Made by a program: the position numbers and the translations under genes
From: Candidatus Omnitrophota bacterium
GTDB lineage: Bacteria > Omnitrophota > Gorgyraeia > Gygaellales > JAQTUX01
Assembly (NCBI GenBank): GCA_028707125.1
Contig: JAQTUX010000001.1
Location: 1,066,438 to 1,130,437, forward strand
Reading direction: 5' to 3'
Length of the DNA stretch: 64,000 nt
Shown here: positions 6,062 to 31,554 of the stretch, one piece after another
How positions within the stretch are numbered: position 1 is the stretch's first letter
How the letters are laid out: every line of letters begins with the position of its first letter
Notes under the pieces: generated by a model
The model's database searches: none
What the model saw: only the letters and a program-made list of their open reading frames with translations
What the model was told of the DNA's origin: nothing

Positions 6062-6364
6062 ATGGCGGCAAAAGGAAAGAAGGGGGGATCCAAGATATCC
6101 AAAGACCTGTCCAATCTCTGGAAAGACGTCCGCAGGGAATTCAACGCCTTATCAGGCAAGGCGAACAGATTAATGGCAAGGGGTGAGAAATACCTTAAAC
6201 GCGTGCCTGCCGAAGCCAGGGAAAAGTCGGATGCGCTGGTCATGAGGGCAAAGCGCGAACAACTGTACTATAATTTAGGTAAGGCGGTAGCGAACAGGGA
6301 TACGCGTAAAATAATGCTCCTGCGCAACAAGATATCTACGCTTAGCAGGAAAATCAACGTATAA
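6062..6364 (+). CDS. Hypothetical coiled-coil basic protein
   Basis: 100 aa, RBS AAAGGAGGG, charged helical sequence; no recognisable domain. Confidence 0.35.
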   Translation: MAAKGKKGGSKISKDLSNLWKDVRREFNALSGKANRLMARGEKYLKRVPAEAREKSDALVMRAKREQLYYNLGKAVANRDTRKIMLLRNKISTLSRKINV

Positions 6365-7457: not shown

Positions 7458-8303
7458 TTAGGTTGCGGAGAGTTCCCGCAGAAAAATACCGGCCCTTTCG
7501 GAAAACCTGTTTGCGGGATAATTACTGAGTATTTGGCGGTATAACAACCGCGCTTTCTCATTTCTGCCGTAAAGATGGTAATTTCTGGCCTTATAGAGCA
7601 TTCTGGCGGCCGGATCCTTGATCTTTGGCGCTGTCATGCCCAAATAGGCGTCCTGGTACACGACGGCAAACGCCCTGCCGAATATCCGGGCATATTTATT
7701 CGCGATCAAGTCAAAAAGGTGCTTTTCAGAGAGAAAATCATCGGAACGCACCGGCGCGTGCCGGATGGGATAAAGATACGCGGGAGAACCTGTCTCAGCG
7801 GTGATCTCTTCTAATGTAACTGCCTCCCCCCTATCGTTACGGTAAATAAGGTTGTGCAGCGGGTCAACAACCCCCCATTTACCTCTATAATATACTTCGG
7901 CTACTGTGTGGGGTGAGCTTGACACATCATCATTCACCATAAGGAACGCGTAGCGGCCGGATATGCCTTTCGCGGCCAGCAGCTTGCATAAAACCTTTGC
8001 CTGATAATCGCACCACCCCACCCCCTCTACCAGATAGTCAAAGGGCTTCCCCGCGTATGGCCTGCTATCGCTGAAATAATGTCCCAGGCGCGACCTCGTA
8101 TAATCAACGGCGGACTGAATCGTGCCCTCCAATGAAGCTGATGACGGCAGTTCCTTCATTGCTATTACCTGAAATGAAACCTCGTGGTAGGCATGCCTGC
8201 CCAGGGAAGAATTCGCGAACAATAAAGAAATCAGCGGCGACAAGAGTATTACTGACGCCGCCGCTATAAGGAAAATGGTGAAAATTCTCAATAAAACGCG
8301 CAT
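7458..8303 (-). CDS. Transglutaminase-like cysteine protease domain protein, membrane-anchored
   Basis: N-terminal TM helix, GVGWCDYQAKV (Cys core of the transglutaminase-like fold), and a C-terminal TPR-like segment. Confidence 0.55.
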   Translation of the reverse strand: MRVLLRIFTIFLIAAASVILLSPLISLLFANSSLGRHAYHEVSFQVIAMKELPSSASLEGTIQSAVDYTRSRLGHYFSDSRPYAGKPFDYLVEGVGWCDYQAKVLCKLLAAKGISGRYAFLMVNDDVSSSPHTVAEVYYRGKWGVVDPLHNLIYRNDRGEAVTLEEITAETGSPAYLYPIRHAPVRSDDFLSEKHLFDLIANKYARIFGRAFAVVYQDAYLGMTAPKIKDPAARMLYKARNYHLYGRNEKARLLYRQILSNYPANRFSERAGIFLRELSAT

Positions 8304-8305
8304 GC

Positions 8306-10180
8306 CTACTTGACCTGTTTAGTTGAAGCCGACCGTATCAGCCGACAGACCACCGCCTTTTCTTTCTTTCTCAGGCCGGTAAACTCGACGCCTACCATAT
8401 TATTCCTTACCCATGCCACCCTTACGGGCAAATAAAGATATTCCTTTGACCCGGGCGCTTTCAGGCCTATCTTAAGCTGCTTCTTCATTCCAAGATCAAA
8501 AGCGCTTCTGCCGGCCAGGCGCAGCCCGCCTTCGGATATGTCTACCGTGTAAGCCGAGACCCTGTCCTCATAGGGGATGATCTTTATACTGGACCTGTAA
8601 TTAAACCTCTTGAATTTCCTTACCTCAAGGCCCAGGCGCATGCTCATAATGTGTAAACATGAGATCTGCCTGACAGCAGGGCTGTCTGTATCTGAAGGAG
8701 TTGAGATCTGTATGTTTATAAAAAAGTTCTTAAGCCGGTATGACTCTAATAACCGCTTGATCTCCAGATTAAGCAAAGTATGCATGCCGCTTATTTTCGC
8801 CTCGGTCGCCTGGGGCGCTATAATGCTGAATTCAGCTCCGGGGCCTTCGTGGCTGAACACCGGGCATTGCAATTTGCCCAAAACAGCGTCAAGTTTCCGC
8901 GTGAACTCCCGGGAGGGGGCCTTTATCCTTTTCAGGAATTTACCGTAGTTAACTATGGCCAGGTGGATCAGATAAAACTGCTCGTTTTTTTCCAGCAAGC
9001 CGTTTATGTTCTCCCTCATTTGTCCAGGGAGCGGGCTTGCGCTGTAAAACAGCGGTAGCGTAAAATAGAACTTACTGCCTACGCCTAACCGGGATTCTAT
9101 CTCTATTTCTCCCCCGTGCCTCTGCACCAGTTCCTTTACTATATAAAGCCCCAGCCCTACGCCTTTTTTCTCTGAGGCAGGTGTCCGGGATACCTGCACG
9201 AACTTCGCGCACAGCCGGGGTATATCCTGCTCGGCAATGCCTACACCCGTATCCAGCACCCCTACTCTGACCCTTGCCTGCAGCAGTTCCACCTCTACGC
9301 TTACCCTCCCCCCTTCTTCCGTGAACTTTATCGCGTTGTTAATAAGGTTGGATAGGGCCTGGTTGACCCTTTCGGCGTCAATAAACAGGTTTATCTGCCC
9401 GGCAGGGATGTTATAACGCAGGGTTATCTTTTTCTGCCGCGCTAATTTCCGGAAATGCGCCGAACTATCATTGATTATGCCGCATAGATCAGCCAGCGAA
9501 TAATGCAGGGAAAACGCCCCTCTTTCAATCCTGGAGATATCAAGCAGCTCGCTTATGATCTTGTTCAACCGCTCTATATTATTCCTGCCGGTAGTAAGGA
9601 TATCCCTCTGCTTATCGTTGAGTATGCCCCCGACATTATCCAGGATAAGCATTACCGATTCCTTGATGATCGCTAAGGGTGTCCTGAGCTCATGAGAAAC
9701 GGCGGAGACAAATTCCGATTTCATCCTGTTCATTTCCTCTAACGACTCAAGGCGCTTCTCAATCTGTTCCTTCTCTTTCTGCAGGCGTTCCAGGTGGAAA
9801 CGCCGAGTTATATCCCTGGTGATACCCATAAGGCCGATGATATTGCCTTTCTCGTCATGCCTGGGTATCTTGGTGGTGGAGACATAATTGTCAATGCCGT
9901 CAGGCCTCGTTGACCTCTCGATCTTGTCAATGATGGGCTTGCCTGTGCTCATCACATATTCATCGTCCCTGGCCATTATCTCGGCGCGTTCCTTCGGGAA
10001 AAAATCAAAGTCGGTCTTGCCGGCGACTTCATCCGGCTTAAGCCCCAGGCCCTTGGCGTGGGCTTCGTTCACCAGGATAAGCCGCCCCTTTCTGTCTTTA
10101 ATATAGACGACGTCGGGAATATGATTTATAAGTTCCAAAAGGATGCTCTCGTGATACCTGTCGGTTTTCGCCTTCATCAA
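8306..10180 (-). CDS. PAS sensor histidine kinase with C-terminal PilZ domain
   Basis: PAS region, HisKA H-box SHELRTPL, HATPase_c G-boxes (DTGVGI, GVGLGL). At the C-terminus, RFNYR...VDISEGGLRL gives the PilZ RxxxR and DxSxxG motifs. Confidence 0.7.
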   Translation of the reverse strand: MMKAKTDRYHESILLELINHIPDVVYIKDRKGRLILVNEAHAKGLGLKPDEVAGKTDFDFFPKERAEIMARDDEYVMSTGKPIIDKIERSTRPDGIDNYVSTTKIPRHDEKGNIIGLMGITRDITRRFHLERLQKEKEQIEKRLESLEEMNRMKSEFVSAVSHELRTPLAIIKESVMLILDNVGGILNDKQRDILTTGRNNIERLNKIISELLDISRIERGAFSLHYSLADLCGIINDSSAHFRKLARQKKITLRYNIPAGQINLFIDAERVNQALSNLINNAIKFTEEGGRVSVEVELLQARVRVGVLDTGVGIAEQDIPRLCAKFVQVSRTPASEKKGVGLGLYIVKELVQRHGGEIEIESRLGVGSKFYFTLPLFYSASPLPGQMRENINGLLEKNEQFYLIHLAIVNYGKFLKRIKAPSREFTRKLDAVLGKLQCPVFSHEGPGAEFSIIAPQATEAKISGMHTLLNLEIKRLLESYRLKNFFINIQISTPSDTDSPAVRQISCLHIMSMRLGLEVRKFKRFNYRSSIKIIPYEDRVSAYTVDISEGGLRLAGRSAFDLGMKKQLKIGLKAPGSKEYLYLPVRVAWVRNNMVGVEFTGLRKKEKAVVCRLIRSASTKQVK

Positions 10181-20963: not shown

Positions 20964-24020
<3,057 letters not shown>

Positions 24021-24046: not shown

Positions 24047-25864
24047 TTATTTCTTCTTGGCAAAATGTCGCTTTATCTTTCCATCTAGTTCAGCGGTACG
24101 CACGCCCATAGGTATATCTGCTTTATTGGTACCTATATTTTTCCGACAGAACTTTACAAAATCATCAAAAGATTTATCGAAAATCGAATAAAACTCCTTA
24201 TCTTCCTTAAGGGTCTTTAAAATCCGTTCTGATGCTGATATTAACAATGCTCTATCATAATTACCACCGATTATACAATGAAGATAAAAACAACCAATGT
24301 GGAATTTACCATACGACAACAACATATTTTTATACGGATCTACAATGCTTTTATTACGCTGCAGATATCTAATATTTTTATTTAAACGCACATCAATTTC
24401 GACTGGAATACGATAAAGCCTATAATCAACCACGCGTTCTTTCTCGGAAGGAAACACCTCATCATATTTCACTTTAAAAAGTCGCTTAGGATGGCTCTTT
24501 GCTTGAGAAGGCATATCTAAAATATATGATAAATATAGCTGAAATAACTTTTGGATACTCACAACATTTCGTTTACCTTGATTACGATAGAAATTTGTAC
24601 GTCGCTCGTAATAAATACCGAAATCGAGCAAGTATCTTTCTATGTTCTTCTGAATGTCTTCACCAGCCCGCAGAGAAAAAGTTTTAATAGGCGTTTGGGA
24701 ATTGGTGGCCTCCGTTATTTTAAAAATTAAATCTCGGTCCTTTGTGGCGATAATCTTAACAAGCACATGTGCCCCATCTTTTAATAATCTTAGCTGTTTA
24801 GATTCATCCAAATTTTCTCCTCGTTCAGTTCTTTCTCTATTATTTAAAGCAATATATAGAGCATTTGCTGTTTGGCAGCCATTTACAACCTGACAACCAT
24901 ATAATTTCAATCGATTATTTGGCATTTCATCGACATGGCGACAAATAATAGTCATACCATTATTTAAGCCCCAAAAATACTTAGAATCATCCTCGCTCGA
25001 ACATGTATCAATTATCTTAGTATTTAGTTCGTTGCGTTGATAATAATCCCTAATATTAGCTTCAAATAAAGCCCCTTGCCACACTTTAACCAAATTTGCG
25101 ATTTGACTACTCTTTATAATACAAATATATCCTGTTAAACTCCTATTTGCTTCAATTGGAGTGATATATTTTAAATTTGCAACATATTCAACCGATTCAA
25201 TGATCTCATCACCCTTATCTTGTAAATCAACTAATTCTTGTGCGCCTATCAATTTAATATCAACATTGGCATAACCTGCGGTTTTTAAGATTTGTTCTAT
25301 TTCCTGAATATGTGGGGACAATACCGGATCGTCCAGAACAGTATCTTTTACTCCAGAAAAGATAAAATAAACAATGACTTTAACTTGGTCTGGAGAATAA
25401 CGAGTATAAATTTCTTCACGAACAGAAGCGATATCTATGGTACGCTGATAAAGATATGAATTAAGATTGTCTTGTATTTCATTCCGAATAAATGATTTTT
25501 GAATGCCATCCTTCATCTTTAATATAGAATCCAAATCAAGGCCGCTCCGTTTGAATTGAAAAAGATGAAAAATAAATTTTGAATCTTCATTACATTCAGA
25601 AAGATCTTCTATTGAATTAAGTATTCTTCGATTAGCTGTAAGATATAACGCGTCCACCCCATAATCATGCCCTACCTTACGATAAGAACTATCTGTAATA
25701 CCCTCTTCAATCTCTACCAGTTGCAATTCTTTAAAAACTTGCTCTAATGAATATAGCATAAATTCCGAACCACGCTTTACATCATTATCTAAACCATCTG
25801 TAAAATCGCGATAAGAATCCGAAAGTGCGTTTACACGGTTATCGAGCAATGTAAAAATACTCAT
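24047..25864 (-). CDS. AIPR-family abortive-infection protein
   Basis: 605 aa and AT-rich. It has the conserved QVVNGCQT motif and sits between hsdS and hsdR, the canonical context for AIPR. RBS GGAGGGAG. Confidence 0.5.
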
Positions 25865-25890
25865 AATCTCCCTCCATCCTTATACAGATC

Positions 25891-25933
25891 ACCCTTATCT
25901 TTCCTGACATCAGCTTTAGCAAAAGAGAATCGC
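25891..25933 (-). repeat. 43-nt duplicate of hsdS 3' end (remnant encoding ..DSLLLKLMSGKIRV..)
   Basis: 39/43 nt identical to 26934-26976, which is inside the hsdS C-terminus (..DSLLPRLMSGKIRV). This is a direct repeat bracketing ORF 25955-26911. Confidence 0.65.
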
Positions 25934-25954
25934 ACGCCTAAACAACTTTATTGA

Positions 25955-26911
25955 TCACATTGATACCATTTCTCGCTCGAGATCTTCAATTCCCCAAGAG
26001 CCCCACGAATCGGCCTCTTTATTAAATTCATTCCACTCTTTGTCTAAGATCTCAACTCCTTCCGGAGAAACTAATGGTTTATCAATAAATTCAAGATGAT
26101 CATATTGAGGAACTGGCAAAAAACCACCACTTCCTCCGAACAGTATATACACATTAATGAAGTCAACGACTTGACAAATTACTTTATGTGCTTTCCATAG
26201 ATATCCTAGCGTGATTGAAACCTGATCGGCGTTATCATATTTTCTACTTTCCGGGGTAGCCGCGTGAGCTATATTTTTGTCCACATGAGCCTTTATATCA
26301 TCAGTAGCTGATTTAATTTTCTTAATAAGGTAACTAAAAATTTCTTTGCGAATATAATCATTGGGCGTTCGCTGATTCTCTTTAATTCCGGATAAAGCAT
26401 CTATCTGCTCATGCCGCATCCTCAAGAGCTGACTATCTAATTCACGTGGCAAGAAAAAAGCGCCCGAACCACTCCGCAACTTCTCCAACCTATAAGCTGA
26501 CGCACGCTGCTCTACAGCCTCATAATCATACTCCCTGTCTTCAGCTAGAAATAAATATCTTCGGGTCATTAAAGAAGTCTTTGCTCTCATATCGTTTAAT
26601 AATGATACCAAAGAAAATGCCCCCTTCTTCCCAGTAAGTGGATGCGGATCAATTAGGCGTCTGATAGCCAGAAATTGGCTGTCGAAAAAACATTCATCAA
26701 TAAAATAATGCAATGTTCCATTAATTTCTTTATTACCCTGATGATTATCTGGCGCAATTTTTCTAGCACAATTAATCAGTCTAAAAACCGCAGCATTCCA
26801 AATCATCTGATAAACCTGATGAATAATTGAGTTGCGATCGTTTAATGCAAAGCACTCAACCCATAAATCACGTCTTAGTTTAAATTTATTGAATTGCGCA
26901 TCACAAACCAT
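25955..26911 (-). CDS. Hypothetical 318-aa protein embedded in the Type I R-M operon (candidate defense protein with HEPN-like RNxxxH motif)
   Basis: Its start is adjacent to the hsdS stop at 26913, so the two are translationally coupled. AT-rich. Contains RNSIIH and RRLIDPH (Rx4H) motifs and no other recognisable domain. Confidence 0.5.
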   Translation of the reverse strand: MVCDAQFNKFKLRRDLWVECFALNDRNSIIHQVYQMIWNAAVFRLINCARKIAPDNHQGNKEINGTLHYFIDECFFDSQFLAIRRLIDPHPLTGKKGAFSLVSLLNDMRAKTSLMTRRYLFLAEDREYDYEAVEQRASAYRLEKLRSGSGAFFLPRELDSQLLRMRHEQIDALSGIKENQRTPNDYIRKEIFSYLIKKIKSATDDIKAHVDKNIAHAATPESRKYDNADQVSITLGYLWKAHKVICQVVDFINVYILFGGSGGFLPVPQYDHLEFIDKPLVSPEGVEILDKEWNEFNKEADSWGSWGIEDLEREMVSM

Positions 26912-26912
26912 A

Positions 26913-28115
26913 TTAATTCTTAATAGAATCGACCCGTATCTTTCCTGACATCAGCCTTGGCAAAAGGGAATCGCGAACTTCAGTTAACCTGCGATTTTCC
27001 TCTTCATTTTTGCGAATCATTGCTTCAATAGAATTAATAACTATGTCAAACTGTTGCATAATAGCATCGGCTGGAATTACCACGTCGATCTTATGAAATT
27101 CTTTCTTATTTAAGCATCCAAAAACCGTTCCTTCCGAGTTAAACCGGTCCCATAAATCCTTTCTCGTAACAAGAAAATAGAAAAGAAACCCGTTTGAATA
27201 ATTTTTCATTCTTAGAGCCGCAACTCCACGTCCAATTGCGCACTTTCCCAATGTAATATTAAGAGCTCCGACAGGAGCGCGCACACTTATAAGAATGTCT
27301 TTGGCTTCTGCTATTCTTGTTGGAGCGGTACAATAAACCCTTGGCGTAGGGAAGCGAAAGCCAAAATCTCTGTTTCCCTGATAGAAAACCGCACCTTCTC
27401 CAGATTCATTATAAGTTTCACCTGGCGGCGATTGCCCCATGACAATATCGCAAATATCAATCAACTTTCCCTTAAGCCATCCTTGCGGTAAACCATCAAC
27501 AAATTTAGCCTTTTCGTATCCCGGAAACTCGAAATCCACAAACCACCGCTTGAAAATCGCCTGGGCGATGGATCCAAGGGTTTTATTCATCCGGCGGTTA
27601 AGCTCGATTTTTGCGTCAAGGTCGGAGAGGATTTTAGTAATAGCCCTCCGCTCCTCATCATTTTTTACCCATGGGAATTTTATCTTATTTAAGTTTTCTT
27701 GACTCAATTTAGGCTGAACAGCACCAGTAATAAACGCATTAATAGTAGTATTTTTTAATTGGTAATAAAGAAACAAGGTATTGCCATAGGAATCGCTTTG
27801 CAGAACATGAGCATGATTACTCACCCAAAACTTCCCGCGTGGCAATTGAAGCATTGGCTTAAAACCGTCGCAGGTAACTGTTCCGTCTTCGGCAATAAGA
27901 AGATAATCTCCATCGTATTTATAGTCATTAACATAATCTATTATTCCAGCAGCACCATAATAAGGATACTGCCCCTTACTTTTTGACCTTTCAGCAGAGC
28001 TTAATGGTTTTCTTTTATTGTCAAAATTAGAAGCGACATCAGGGATTGTAACCATTTCCCAATCTTCAGGAATCATCCCGATTTCAGTCTCTTTGAGTTT
28101 TGTTTTTTGTTTCAT
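26913..28115 (-). CDS. hsdS: Type I restriction-modification specificity subunit
   Basis: 400 aa with two TRD halves, a central conserved helix (ITKILSDLDAKIELNRRMNKTL) and a C-terminal conserved helix (LTEVRDSLLPRLMSGKIRV). Confidence 0.8.
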   Translation of the reverse strand: MKQKTKLKETEIGMIPEDWEMVTIPDVASNFDNKRKPLSSAERSKSKGQYPYYGAAGIIDYVNDYKYDGDYLLIAEDGTVTCDGFKPMLQLPRGKFWVSNHAHVLQSDSYGNTLFLYYQLKNTTINAFITGAVQPKLSQENLNKIKFPWVKNDEERRAITKILSDLDAKIELNRRMNKTLGSIAQAIFKRWFVDFEFPGYEKAKFVDGLPQGWLKGKLIDICDIVMGQSPPGETYNESGEGAVFYQGNRDFGFRFPTPRVYCTAPTRIAEAKDILISVRAPVGALNITLGKCAIGRGVAALRMKNYSNGFLFYFLVTRKDLWDRFNSEGTVFGCLNKKEFHKIDVVIPADAIMQQFDIVINSIEAMIRKNEEENRRLTEVRDSLLPRLMSGKIRVDSIKN

Positions 28116-28657
28116 CTGTTATTTTCTAAAAATATGTCCATTAGTTCTTTTAAGGTTTTATATCCATACTCCACAGCAAACCGATCCCTTTCACGCTCTG
28201 GGTCTTTTGTACCGTGAAATAAATTATTTCTGATACTGCACCAAAATTCAACCATGTTCCCCCAATCACTGAGCGAATGAATAACCCCCTTTATTTCTTG
28301 TCGCTCTTCCGGAGACATCTCATCAAGGTTATTTTTTGAGCAATTCCACCACTTTATTTCTTCTACAGAATTGAGGTCCCGAGAAGCATTGCCGAGCCTC
28401 AGTTTATCTAGTTCTTGCTTAATATGCTCCCAATCCTTTCTCAGAAACTTTCTTGATTTTATGCGTTCTAAATATTTCTTTCTTATATCTTTAGCTTGCT
28501 TAAGCTTTTGAATAGCTTGCCTGTCTGAATCATTGCTTAAATATTTTTGAGTCTTCAAATATGCAATAAATGCTAGATATTCAAATACAAATTTAGAAAA
28601 ATAGTCTTCTTCACTTGCTTTCGCATGCCAATTCTTTATTAATTGCTCATAGCTCAT
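28112..28657 (-). CDS. HEPN-like protein inserted between hsdM and hsdS
   Basis: 181 aa with the C-terminal motif [12 protein letters not shown] (Rx4H with RN..H). Its start overlaps the hsdM stop and its stop overlaps the hsdS start. Confidence 0.4.
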
Positions 28658-30230
28658 ATCCCAAACCTTCCAAGTTTTTCTTTATTTCTTGCTCAAGCTC
28701 TTTTGATTTCTTGAATTGAAAATAAAGCTCAGATGTAAGCCTTTGCATTTTCTTTTCAAAAAGCTCATCATCCTCTTCAACCTCTTCGGTTCCGACATAT
28801 CTGCCCGGAGTCAAAATATGCCCGTGTTTCTGTATCTCATCGAGCTTAACTGCCTTGCAGAATCCTCTAACATCTTTATATTTCCCGCCTTCGCCTCTCC
28901 AAGCGTGATAGGTTAAGGCAATCTTTTTTATTTCCTCATCGGTTAATTCACGATGGCGCCTGTCAATCATCGCCCCCATATTCCTGGCATCAATAAAGAG
29001 AATTTCTCCGCGCCTGTCTCTAAACTTATGGTTCTTCTTATCGCGGGAGACAAACCAGAGGCATACGGGAATCATGGTGTTATAAAAAAGCTGCGAAGGT
29101 AACGATATCATGCAGTCCACAAGGTTTGCCTCTATGATATTCTTTCGGATTTCGCCTTCACCAGAGGTATTAGAAGACATAGAGCCATTGGCTAAAACAA
29201 ACCCTGCTGTGCCGCTTGGAGAAAGATGATGAATGAAATGCTGCACCCAGGCAAAGTTGGCATTCCCTGCAGGAGGCACTCCATATTTCCAGCGCGCATC
29301 TTCTCGCAGAAGCTCGCCTTTCCAATCGCTGTCATTGAAAGGCGGATTGGCGATAACAAAGTCGGCCTTCAGGTCCTTGTGGGCGTCATTCAAAAAGCTG
29401 CCTTCATTATTCCAGGTAATATGCGCATCTATGCCGCGGATGGCAAGGTTCATCTTACATAGACGCCAGGTTGTCTGGTTGGATTCCTGTCCGTAGACCG
29501 CGATATCTCCGATGCGTCCGCCGTGCGCCTGCACAAACTTCTCGCTCTGAACAAACATACCGCCTGAGCCGCAGCAGGGATCAAATACCCTGCCTTTATA
29601 CGGCTCGAGCATTTCAACCAACAGCTTAACAATGCAGCGCGCAGTATAAAATTGGCCGCCCTTCTTACCTTCGGCATCGGCAAATTGGCCGAGAAAATAC
29701 TCATATACACGGCCTAAAATGTCCTTACTGCGGCCCTCTTTATCGCCAAGCACTATGGTCCCTATCAAATCAATTAGTTCGCCAAGGCGCTGCTTATCAA
29801 GGGATGACCGGGCATAATTCTTAGGAAGCACTCCTCTAAGAGAAGAATTCCCTTTCTCAACCGCATCCATAGCATCATCAATAATCTTGCCTATGGTTGG
29901 CTGTTTGGCATTCTTCTGCAGATAATCCCAGCGCGCCTTTTTAGGAACATAAAAGACATTCTCGGCCCTGTATTCATCGGGATCATTCAATGTTTCATAC
30001 CGCGCCTGCGGCTCGGCAAGATAATATTCGCCCTTACTATCAGACAGTTCTTTCTCTAAATCATTGTAATGTTCCTCAAAGGCATCAGAGATGTATTTCA
30101 AGAAAATAAGCCCCAGGACAACATGCTTATACTCGGCAGCGTCCATATTATTACGGAGCTTATCCGCGGCCTGCCACAGCTTTGCCTCAAAGCCAAGATT
30201 GGCTCCGTTGTCTTTCTTCTTTTTAACCAT
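28647..30230 (-). CDS. hsdM: Type I restriction-modification N6-adenine DNA methyltransferase subunit
   Basis: HsdM N-terminal domain, then motif I (DPCCGSGGM) and motif IV (VIANPPFN). Confidence 0.9.
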
Positions 30231-30369: not shown

Positions 30370-31554
30370 TTATTTTCTTATGAGGGGGAGCATCCTGTAA
30401 ACATTGGCTTTCCTGTCGGAATAATCAGGGGGTGTTGGCTTGTCTCTGGTGATTTCAATGAGCCCGTTTGACTCTAATTCCAAGAGACCTAATGAGATAG
30501 TCGTATCGCTTATGCCGTAGAGCTTGGACATATCTTCCTGGCTGCGGAACCAGAAAGGGTATTTTGTAGAGCGGGATGCTTCATACAGGCAAACAAGATA
30601 CATATACTTTGCCCGCATAGAGAGTTTGTCGGAGTATCCCTGATGCCAATATTCAAAGGGAATTGTTATTGGGGCGGAGAGCGCGGCGGTATCGGACTTT
30701 AGTGTGACTTTGCCTTTCCTGTAGTCTATAAGGCCGCAGCGCCTGAGGCGTTTCAGTAAACGGTGCACCCTCTCATAGAAGTAGTGGTGTTCATTGCGAT
30801 AGGTGCCCGGTTTCTTTGGAGCTTGGTATTTCATATCTTTGGCTATAGAGTCGTAATCAAGGTCAAAGGATGACTGGTCTCTCTCTTGCCGGAGTTTATG
30901 TAACAGTAGATAAATGTCAAATTGTCTGTCTGCCTGGGCTTTAATGAGACGGCGGCCTAACTTAGGGGAAAGAAGAAAACTGCTTGAAACAGCTACGCCT
31001 TCTGCGGAAGGCAGGAATAGATCTTTATCCTGAAGAGGGATATCGTTAATCTGCTCCTTCAAGGCAATGGCGTCTTCGGGAGAGTCCTTAAAATAGGTGG
31101 CCTCATAGTTATCTTCAATGGCCGCCTTTGACCAGTTGGCGCTGCCTACGAATACATATCTGTCATCAATAACGGCTGCCTTTGTATGCAAAAGATGCTC
31201 AGGCGTATCAAAGTATACGGCTATGTTGTTTTCCTTTAGCTTTTCATAGGCAAGGCGGTTCTCCTTTAGCTTTGAGTCCTCCAAGATGACCTTTATCGCT
31301 ACTTTACGCTGTTTCGCGGCTATGAGATCATTAAGCAGCTCGTTAACCGGGTTGGCCTGGTCATCAGGGCCTATTATGATAAAGTAGATCGCTATGGTAA
31401 TTGAGGTCTTGGACTCGGATAGGTATTTATGCAGGTATTGGTGGTAGGAGCTGCCGAAAAGGATTTCCGCAGAGCTGATCTGGCCGCAAAATACAAAATA
31501 AGCCAATGCAGCCAGAGATATATAGTTGACTCTTAGCTTATTTATGTTTCTCAC
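30370..31554 (-). CDS. Phospholipase-D-family (Nuc-like) nuclease with signal peptide and C-terminal winged-helix domain
   Basis: The N-terminus has a signal peptide. The HKD motif is HTKAAVIDDRYVFVGSANWS. The C-terminal ~200 aa end in a wHTH-like segment MSKLYGISDTTISLGLLELESNGLIEI. Confidence 0.6.
   Translation of the reverse strand: MRNINKLRVNYISLAALAYFVFCGQISSAEILFGSSYHQYLHKYLSESKTSITIAIYFIIIGPDDQANPVNELLNDLIAAKQRKVAIKVILEDSKLKENRLAYEKLKENNIAVYFDTPEHLLHTKAAVIDDRYVFVGSANWSKAAIEDNYEATYFKDSPEDAIALKEQINDIPLQDKDLFLPSAEGVAVSSSFLLSPKLGRRLIKAQADRQFDIYLLLHKLRQERDQSSFDLDYDSIAKDMKYQAPKKPGTYRNEHHYFYERVHRLLKRLRRCGLIDYRKGKVTLKSDTAALSAPITIPFEYWHQGYSDKLSMRAKYMYLVCLYEASRSTKYPFWFRSQEDMSKLYGISDTTISLGLLELESNGLIEITRDKPTPPDYSDRKANVYRMLPLIRK

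Follow-up and report, generated by a model that had tools for sequence, protein, structure and literature searches.

In a 64,000-nucleotide (nt) stretch of a Candidatus Omnitrophota metagenome-assembled genome (MAG; assembly GCA_028707125.1, contig JAQTUX010000001.1, positions 1,066,438 to 1,130,437), here called the window, a Type I restriction-modification (RM) operon carries two abortive-infection (Abi) genes between hsdS and hsdR, and between these two genes lies a second, incomplete copy of the hsdS 3' end. This remnant is probably a pseudogene of the last ~58 nt of a second hsdS, and would mark a recombination scar at which the cargo regions of two Type I operons were joined, the cargo stretch being the interval between hsdS and hsdR. 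The genes, all on the minus strand, run in the order hsdM, a gene of 181 amino acids (aa), hsdS, a 318-aa gene of the AbiU2 family, a 90-nt gap containing the remnant, an AIPR (AbiU1-like) gene and hsdR. Within this operon family, cargo sets still have the junctions to hsdS and hsdR that are native to them, and in relatives of the window locus they are concatenated via junctions in which the 5' end of hsdR is fused to the 3' end of hsdS (hsdR-5'::hsdS-3'). In the window, the cargo of an hsdS-AbiU2-hsdR operon would have been joined to the cargo of an hsdS-AIPR-hsdR operon, leaving a junction, J, between AbiU2 and AIPR.

The orphan hsdS end in the window

A preliminary description of the sequence had pointed to a direct duplication of the hsdS 3' end. 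The repeat search re-found it as a 43-nt direct repeat with 39 of 43 positions identical, at 25891-25933 and 26932-26974 (spacing 1041), and the consensus string and peptides that had been quoted for it are correct; the first range had been placed exactly, and the second, given as 26934-26976, was 2 nt off. Aligning the two copies, a check proposed at the time, gives 39/43 without gaps, and gapped local alignment widens the homology 3'-wards in the direction of the genes, to 25876-25933 against 26916-26974, that is ~58 nt with two 1-nt indels. The longest exact run between the copies is 19 nt. A chance origin of the repeat is excluded, because 30 shuffles of the surrounding 11 kb gave at best an ungapped 43-mer of 25/43 (mean 22.9), compared with the 39 observed.

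It is hardly credible that the arrangement is an artefact or coincidence, arising either from a chimeric MAG assembly or from protein-level constraint on two real hsdS genes. The source is metagenome-assembled and the segment is conserved at the protein level across the family, but an independent Logan contig (L001; run SRR22315508, 1883 nt) is 100% identical to window 25679-27561 with both copies inside, so the arrangement is found outside the MAG assembly as well. Moreover, the downstream copy lies outside any hsdS open reading frame (ORF), with a TAG two codons upstream, and the same architecture is present in other assemblies (the loci L003/L010, L039, L013 and L025, described below).

The 91% identity of the copies had been taken to rule out mere family conservation. 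This argument fails against the background between genomes, where the hsdS ends of different MAGs are identical to one another at 27-37 of 43 positions (63-86%) in the repeat segment. Since such ends already reach 86%, the 91% is likewise no proof of a recent local duplication. The excess identity of the remnant to the resident hsdS is small, and gene conversion could be its cause.

As first described, one copy (26932-26974) is the real hsdS C-terminus and the other is a remnant that runs into the AIPR ribosome-binding site, GGAGGG. Judged by its sequence, the latter is what is left of a second hsdS gene belonging to the same Type I family: its 3' end, orphaned and in decay. At 25891-25933 it reads a stop followed by ACDSLLLKLMSGKIRV, and its peptide scored 14/14 in the motif scan; a Pro found without exception in six real HsdS proteins is replaced by Leu, and one nucleotide present in the real hsdS copy is missing after GGGT. 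With the missing base restored, direct reading of the sequence gives a TGA that overlaps the AIPR ATG as ATGA. Because the restored frame ends in this overlap and has the ribosome-binding site inside it, the region bears the signature of an AIPR gene that once followed an intact hsdS and was translationally coupled to it. A similar motif, TGGAGGG followed by ATGAGTAT, lies ahead of an 80%-identical AIPR gene in locus L005.

Inside J there is no promoter-like or terminator-like match, and no stable RNA fold, the predicted structure being no better than that of shuffles (z = +1.1). The scar is today without detectable function of its own; it supplies the native ribosome-binding region of AIPR and a weak patch of homology (19 nt exact). 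From general homology requirements, recombination between the two window copies, with this longest exact match of 19 nt, should now be rare.

Junctions in related loci

Orphan hsdS ends were sought by a motif scan of all fetched loci and by self-comparisons. L003 contains two, at 6112-6154 and 7833-7875, each immediately ahead of a cargo gene, and the junctions to which they belong are termed J2 and J3. J2 is an intact mini-ORF of 35 aa (MPHSIIESEVEQVAINIC continued by DSLLPKLISGKIRIKVG and a stop), the first 18 codons of which are the HsdR N-terminus (compare MAHIIIESEVEQAALDIL in L002). J3 reads MSLTIIEFEVD, a stop, VAFKIC and then DSLLPRLMSEKIRVNSTRG with a second stop, after which comes the ATG of AbiU2; it thus contains an in-frame TAA, as well as a Gly to Glu change, and its own ATG shares bases with the stop of the DUF6119 gene before it. 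The sole match of a junction-specific DNA pattern in metagenome contigs was L039, where an intact 33-aa mini-ORF (MKHVITETQCERITINIC continued by DSLLPRLMSGKMRVN and a stop) separates an hsdS-like gene from a 208-aa gene. This 208/209-aa gene follows intact hsdS in L044 and L047, with the same tail junction as in L039.

In each of the composite junctions J2, J3 and L039, 18 hsdR N-terminal codons are fused to the last 15-19 codons of hsdS. Compared with real hsdR 5' ends, their hsdR halves are identical at 25-39 of 54 nt, a score equalled by 0-1 of 2000 shuffles, and at the fusion point the sequence reads as a short ATTC.T microhomology between hsdR GAT ATT CTT and hsdS ATT CGT GAT. All four junctions, that of the window included, open the hsdS half at the same codon, at an Arg-Asp pair, and all four have TGY (Cys) there, versus CGY (Arg) in the five real hsdS genes compared: the codons are TGC GAT in the window and L039, TGT GAT in J2 and J3, and CGY GAT in real hsdS. 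J2 and the L039 junction also have in common a derived Ile-Asn in place of the HsdR Leu-Asp, which suggests that they descend from one original fusion. Clearly, the L003 junctions were not copied from the resident hsdS and hsdR, which they match at 29/43 and 31-33/54 respectively; for J2 these scores are lower than those to other loci, and for J3 they are at the low end of the range.

The position of the orphan ends is as regular as their structure. The window junction lies between the AbiU2 and AIPR cargo, inside the hsdS-to-hsdR interval, and has in the restored frame a native junction to the next gene; orphan ends elsewhere keep the native stop/start junction in every case (J3 to AbiU2 in L003, L039 to the 208-aa gene, L013 to AbiU2, and L025 to a 145-aa gene). 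In the GC-rich L013, from Phycisphaerae, a 239-aa ORF is flanked by two direct copies of 28 nt of the hsdS end (26/28 identical); the orphan copy has no hsdR half, and its stop overlaps the AbiU2 ATG. L025 has at 9423-9500 an orphan hsdS C-terminal fragment ending in LQPKLLSGKIRMRDTESSAEEAV and a stop that overlaps the start of the 145-aa gene, which is followed by an AbiU2 homologue. This orphan, too, is without an hsdR half, and by BLAST labels no hsdM, hsdS or hsdR lies nearby; it seems that the cargo module moved out of its operon with a fossil hsdS end still attached. The L013 and L025 orphans are independent of the composite junctions. The expectation that the pattern would recur in homologous loci was thus borne out, twice in L003 and again in L039, L013 and L025, while a general hsdS-end pattern had no match in viral contigs.

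Repeats of another kind were met in the same collection. In other Omnitrophota MAGs, groups of one to four genes close to AbiU2 homologues are bracketed by near-perfect intergenic direct repeats (98-100%), some with short palindromes, at L011 2948-2995/4778-4825 and 5895-5954/8321-8380, L016 6076-6126/9089-9139 and L023 15859-15912/18826-18879. These 48-60-nt repeats were considered as instances of the same phenomenon and rejected, being unrelated to hsdS. Upstream of the L039 junction, an ORF at 897-1847 on the minus strand has an HsdM-C-terminus-like start, a single region like a target-recognition domain (TRD) and a coiled-coil end; it may be a fusion of HsdM with half an HsdS, on what is a short contig.

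That the junctions are functional elements under selection, serving as an integron-like site of cassette exchange or encoding a mini-protein for translational coupling or for modulating how the restriction complex assembles, is very unlikely. The mini-ORF is intact in J2 and L039, the hsdS halves of these two differ by 5 synonymous and 5 conservative changes while the hsdR half looks neutral (manual count), and in L003 a junction stands at every cargo-set boundary found. The ORF is nevertheless broken in the window (TAG, frameshift, Pro to Leu) and by the TAA and Gly to Glu of J3, and the conservative changes are equally explained by exchange with live hsdS genes. A padded query found no homologue of the mini-ORF in the protein collection, the junctions have no consistent recombinase neighbour and no palindrome, stable fold, promoter or terminator, and L044, L047 and L004 stack cargo without any junction.

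Probable order of events in the cargo region

Six aligned HsdS proteins of the family show TRDs reassorted between loci. Window TRD1 is 71-89% identical to that of L044, whereas TRD2 is unrelated (9-22%), and the L044 TRD2 is common to L004. Conservation then resumes at ..RDSLLP. To judge from this alignment the hsdS C-terminal block is a recombination anchor in this family, because the TRDs reassort and conservation resumes there; that the repeat falls where Type I specificity shuffling occurs had been noted from the start, and the mosaic alleles agree. Downstream of each cargo set, conservation next appears at the start of hsdR. A junction composed of the hsdS-end and hsdR-start blocks has partners for pairing at the ends of every other cargo set of the family.

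Five related operons provide the background against which the window can be read. L002 has hsdM, a small gene, hsdS, AbiU2 and hsdR; L004 has hsdS, a 566-aa gene, AbiU2 and hsdR; L044 and L047 have hsdS, a 209-aa gene (39 aa in L047), a 312-aa gene, AbiU2 and hsdR; and L003, on the same contig as L010, has hsdS, three genes, the DUF6119 gene, AbiU2 and hsdR. AbiU2 adjoins hsdR in all five, and among the loci of this operon family AIPR lies between AbiU2 and hsdR only in the window. The window hsdM is 80-81% identical to that of L002, L003 and L004, and its hsdR is 75-79% identical to that of the same three loci and 79% to that of L044; the window, L002, L003, L004 and L044 share one backbone and are one operon family. 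A chimeric backbone, with hsdR of a lineage differing from that of hsdM, was rejected, both genes being 75-81% identical to the same relatives.

The junction between the window hsdS tail and AbiU2 is homologous to that of L002, where hsdS is intact, and to J3 of L003. Because AbiU2 adjoins hsdR in the five related operons, AIPR with the remnant as its 5' leader is the likelier newcomer, rather than AbiU2. Insertion of remnant and AIPR between AbiU2 and hsdR converts the L002 state into that of the window in one step; the reverse order, with AbiU2 entering an hsdS-AIPR-hsdR operon, formally gives an identical product. The AbiU1-like (AIPR) and AbiU2-like (HEPN) genes, neighbours in the window at 24047-26911, are separate in all relatives examined, and the pair seems to have been assembled by recombination from independently acquired modules rather than inherited as a pair. 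The preliminary description was right to see a recombination or insertion footprint built from the conserved hsdS C-terminal region, but probably not in taking the bracketed gene as the insert, since AbiU2 looks resident. Neither its other suggestion, the replacement of an earlier hsdS allele, nor a duplication of the target-site type agrees with the orphan ends fused to hsdR 5' sequence in relatives, which point to fusion of cargo regions instead.

A path to such a fusion can be proposed. J would have originated rarely, perhaps by a microhomology join that deleted hsdR, hsdM and most of hsdS between tandem operons, or alternatively by circularisation of a segment running from the hsdS 3' end through the cargo to the hsdR 5' end. 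Homologous recombination at its two halves would then have carried it further and stacked cargo sets; since each half corresponds to one of the two conserved blocks found on either side of every cargo set of the family, J can concatenate such sets. In the window nearly all of the hsdR half of J would have been lost. A broader role is quite unlikely, namely that the junction is a portable recombination adaptor, used to capture and stack defence cargo among the Type I operons of one family in an integron-like manner, by homologous recombination and with no dedicated integrase, and that its intact forms might also be translated as a ~35-aa HsdR-N/HsdS-C regulatory peptide.

Local duplication, the main reading of the preliminary description, offers a different, though unlikely, account of the repeat. 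A cassette with the 318-aa gene would have entered at the resident hsdS 3' end, bringing a new end and displacing the old one in the manner of attL and attR sites, or the repeat would have arisen by unequal or illegitimate recombination. It is true that the copies bracket exactly one gene and, at 39/43, are each other's nearest relatives among the copies compared, and that the L013 repeat brackets a single ORF likewise. Yet the bracketed segment and its surroundings contain no integrase or recombinase, the hsdS-to-AbiU2 junction has the native form seen in L002, and AbiU2 adjoins hsdR in the five related operons and so looks resident. The remnant, in turn, ends its restored frame in the ATGA overlap with AIPR, is tied by its TGY codon to the composite junctions of L003 and L039, which are not themselves local copies, and has an identity near the between-genome background of up to 37/43.

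The joining of two cargo regions, favoured here, also has evidence to contend with. The window remnant is nearest to the resident hsdS end (39/43, versus 28-35 to other loci), and the window junction is placed in the composite family by its start point, TGY codon and position only. The ~20-nt spacer ahead of the remnant does not match hsdR 5' ends or the hsdR halves of the other junctions significantly (best 60/1000 shuffles); its ATCAATAAAGTTGTTTAGG compared with ATGAGTAAAGTTATTACAG of the L004 hsdR, at 13/19, is suggestive but not significant. Composite-junction loci number only three, and two of the four junctions are intact mini-ORFs, leaving room for a function. No locus that could have been the donor, with an intact hsdS joined to AIPR, came to light; the closest homologue of AIPR (80%, L005) sits after hsdR in an unrelated Type I family, and the region upstream of that gene does not resemble the scar significantly (31/500 shuffles). 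Homologues of AIPR at 47% lie outside Type I loci, and a scan of genome contigs with the AIPR protein found no relative. The empty site sought in relatives, with hsdS directly before AIPR, was likewise not found: there is no hsdS-AIPR-hsdR locus among them, and L002 is instead hsdS-AbiU2-hsdR without AIPR.

Genes of the locus and comparison with known systems

Table 1. Features of the Type I locus, in window coordinates
Feature	Position	Strand	Remarks
hsdM, 527 aa, Type I methylase subunit	28647-30230	minus	Pfam N6_Mtase 3.6e-110 and HsdM_N
181-aa gene, overlaps hsdM and hsdS	28112-28657	minus	position conserved in operon family
hsdS, 400 aa, intact specificity subunit	26913-28115	minus	Pfam Methylase_S 6.8e-34; PADLOC Specificity_I 1.4e-84
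Functional repeat copy, conserved hsdS C-terminal region and tail	26916-26974	minus	ends in RDSLLPRLMSGKIRVDSIKN and the stop
318-aa gene, HEPN AbiU2-family abortive-infection protein	25955-26911	minus	Pfam PF18734 HEPN_AbiU2
Junction J, 90-nt gap between AbiU2 stop (25955) and AIPR start (25864)	25865-25954	minus	contains scar
Spacer between AbiU2 stop and remnant, ~20 nt	25934-25954	minus	possible degraded hsdR 5' fragment
Orphan hsdS 3' end (remnant)	25876-25933	minus	reads C-DSLLLKLMSGKIRV; homology to hsdS C-terminal end
AIPR ribosome-binding site GGAGGG	25870-25875	minus	just 3' of remnant homology, within restored hsdS frame
AIPR/AbiU1-like abortive-infection gene, 605 aa	24047-25864	minus	Pfam AIPR, PADLOC AbiU
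hsdR, 1018 aa, restriction subunit	20964-24020	minus	Pfam HSDR_N, SWI2_SNF2, T1RH-like_C

The 318-aa gene, at first described as unknown, encodes a HEPN protein of the AbiU2 family (PF18734; 35.4 bits, cut-off 26.8, E = 9.5e-9) and is the usual resident of this operon family. It is the single gene of the bracketed segment, which contains no recombinase or transposase, and its ATG follows the hsdS stop by 1 nt. Homologues of the protein numbered 77, and in sequence comparison Arg and His residues are invariant across 45 homologues. The AIPR protein matches PF10592 (6.6e-36, 125 bits, cut-off 25) and PADLOC AbiU (3e-87, 292 bits). The 181-aa gene has no match in Pfam, NCBIfam or PADLOC; it is 64% identical to a 179-aa gene at the same position in L003, and in L002, L044 and L047 genes of 126-157 aa occupy that position. 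The gene may encode a fourth component of these Type I systems.

Several further observations concern the locus and its relatives. The hsdR proteins of L002, L003, L004 and L044 are 1184-1199 aa long and have a C-terminal extension with a weak Peptidase_S24 match, which the window hsdR lacks. Directly upstream of the window hsdM, at 30370-31554 on the minus strand, is a gene for a PLD-like nuclease or phospholipase domain with a C-terminal helix-turn-helix (HTH), which may be a further defence gene of the same island. No recombinase was found near the window locus, the neighbours being this PLD-HTH gene, an AAA ATPase, a T2SSB-domain protein, DHQ synthase and ACP/FabA genes. Two related loci, L002 (1-816) and L004 (252-2320), have genes for a serine recombinase and a DUF2924 protein immediately ahead of hsdM. 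The entire Type I operon may there be able to ride on a mobile or integrative element; the window locus has no counterpart of these genes on its flanks. The 208/209-aa gene, at 2094-2723 in L044 and 171-797 in L039, encodes a predicted membrane protein, and the 39-aa ORF of L047 (2241-2360) is an internal deletion of it that retains both ends. The cargo ORFs of L013, L025, L039 and L044 received no Pfam assignment.

Abi genes embedded in Type I operons are already known, as is TRD shuffling at conserved hsdS regions. AbiU2 has been listed among the occupants of RM operons (PMC3710099), AbiU1/AIPR is frequently RM-associated (PMC3506569, PMC3632139), and PrrC is embedded in a Type IC locus (PMC3710099, PMC12707154). 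PrrC in EcoprrI, AbiU1/AIPR and AbiU2 resemble the window in being co-oriented, tightly packed cargo between hsdS and hsdR; the published descriptions cover gene content and function, to which the window adds fragments of gene ends as boundaries. In the literature searched, coverage of which was incomplete, no account was found of embedded cargo sets with seams made of hsdS-end and hsdR-start fragments. The window also resembles lactococcal AbiU (AbiU1 with AbiU2) in encoding AbiU1-like and AbiU2-like HEPN neighbours, but here the two genes are split by the scar.

Specificity shuffling of hsdS proceeds by exchange of TRDs via conserved regions, and includes the 'domain movement' of Helicobacter hsdS. 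The window's family uses the same conserved C-terminal block, with TRD1 and TRD2 reassorted. TRD exchange, however, replaces sequence and leaves no orphan, whereas the window keeps an extra non-coding copy downstream; and what is exchanged in the window's family is cargo genes rather than TRDs, with the orphan fused to the hsdR start in relatives. A phase-variable hsdS shufflon differs in other respects, as the window copies are direct and not inverted, the orphan has no TRD and there is no recombinase.

The attL and attR sites of elements inserted at gene 3' ends are alike in geometry, with an upstream copy that completes the gene, a displaced downstream remnant and direct repeats of tens of nt. 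The window, in contrast, has no integrase, a single-gene insert and repeats that are 91% identical with a longest exact run of 19 nt, not an identical core, and the fusion of the remnant to an hsdR fragment in relatives would be unexpected of an att site. Integron arrays share with these operons promoterless modules of one or a few genes in one orientation, with a recurring short separator. Unlike them, the window has neither intI nor an attC-like imperfect palindrome (fold z = +1.1), its separator derives from the coding ends of the flanking operon genes, and many related Type I cargo arrays have no separator.

Defence genes nest in Type I operons by a route that is seldom traceable, and here the seams can still be read. 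Each cargo set keeps the end of the hsdS that it once followed and, in three relatives, also the start of the hsdR that formerly came after it. Whole hsdS-to-hsdR cargo stretches from different operons of one family have been concatenated, which points to the two conserved gene ends as the handles used in recombination. Taken alone the window is a modest case, a decaying scar with no sign of present function and the most degraded example among few loci overall. If the pattern is general, orphan gene ends would provide a simple signature by which to delimit cargo modules and to order the steps in which defence islands were assembled.

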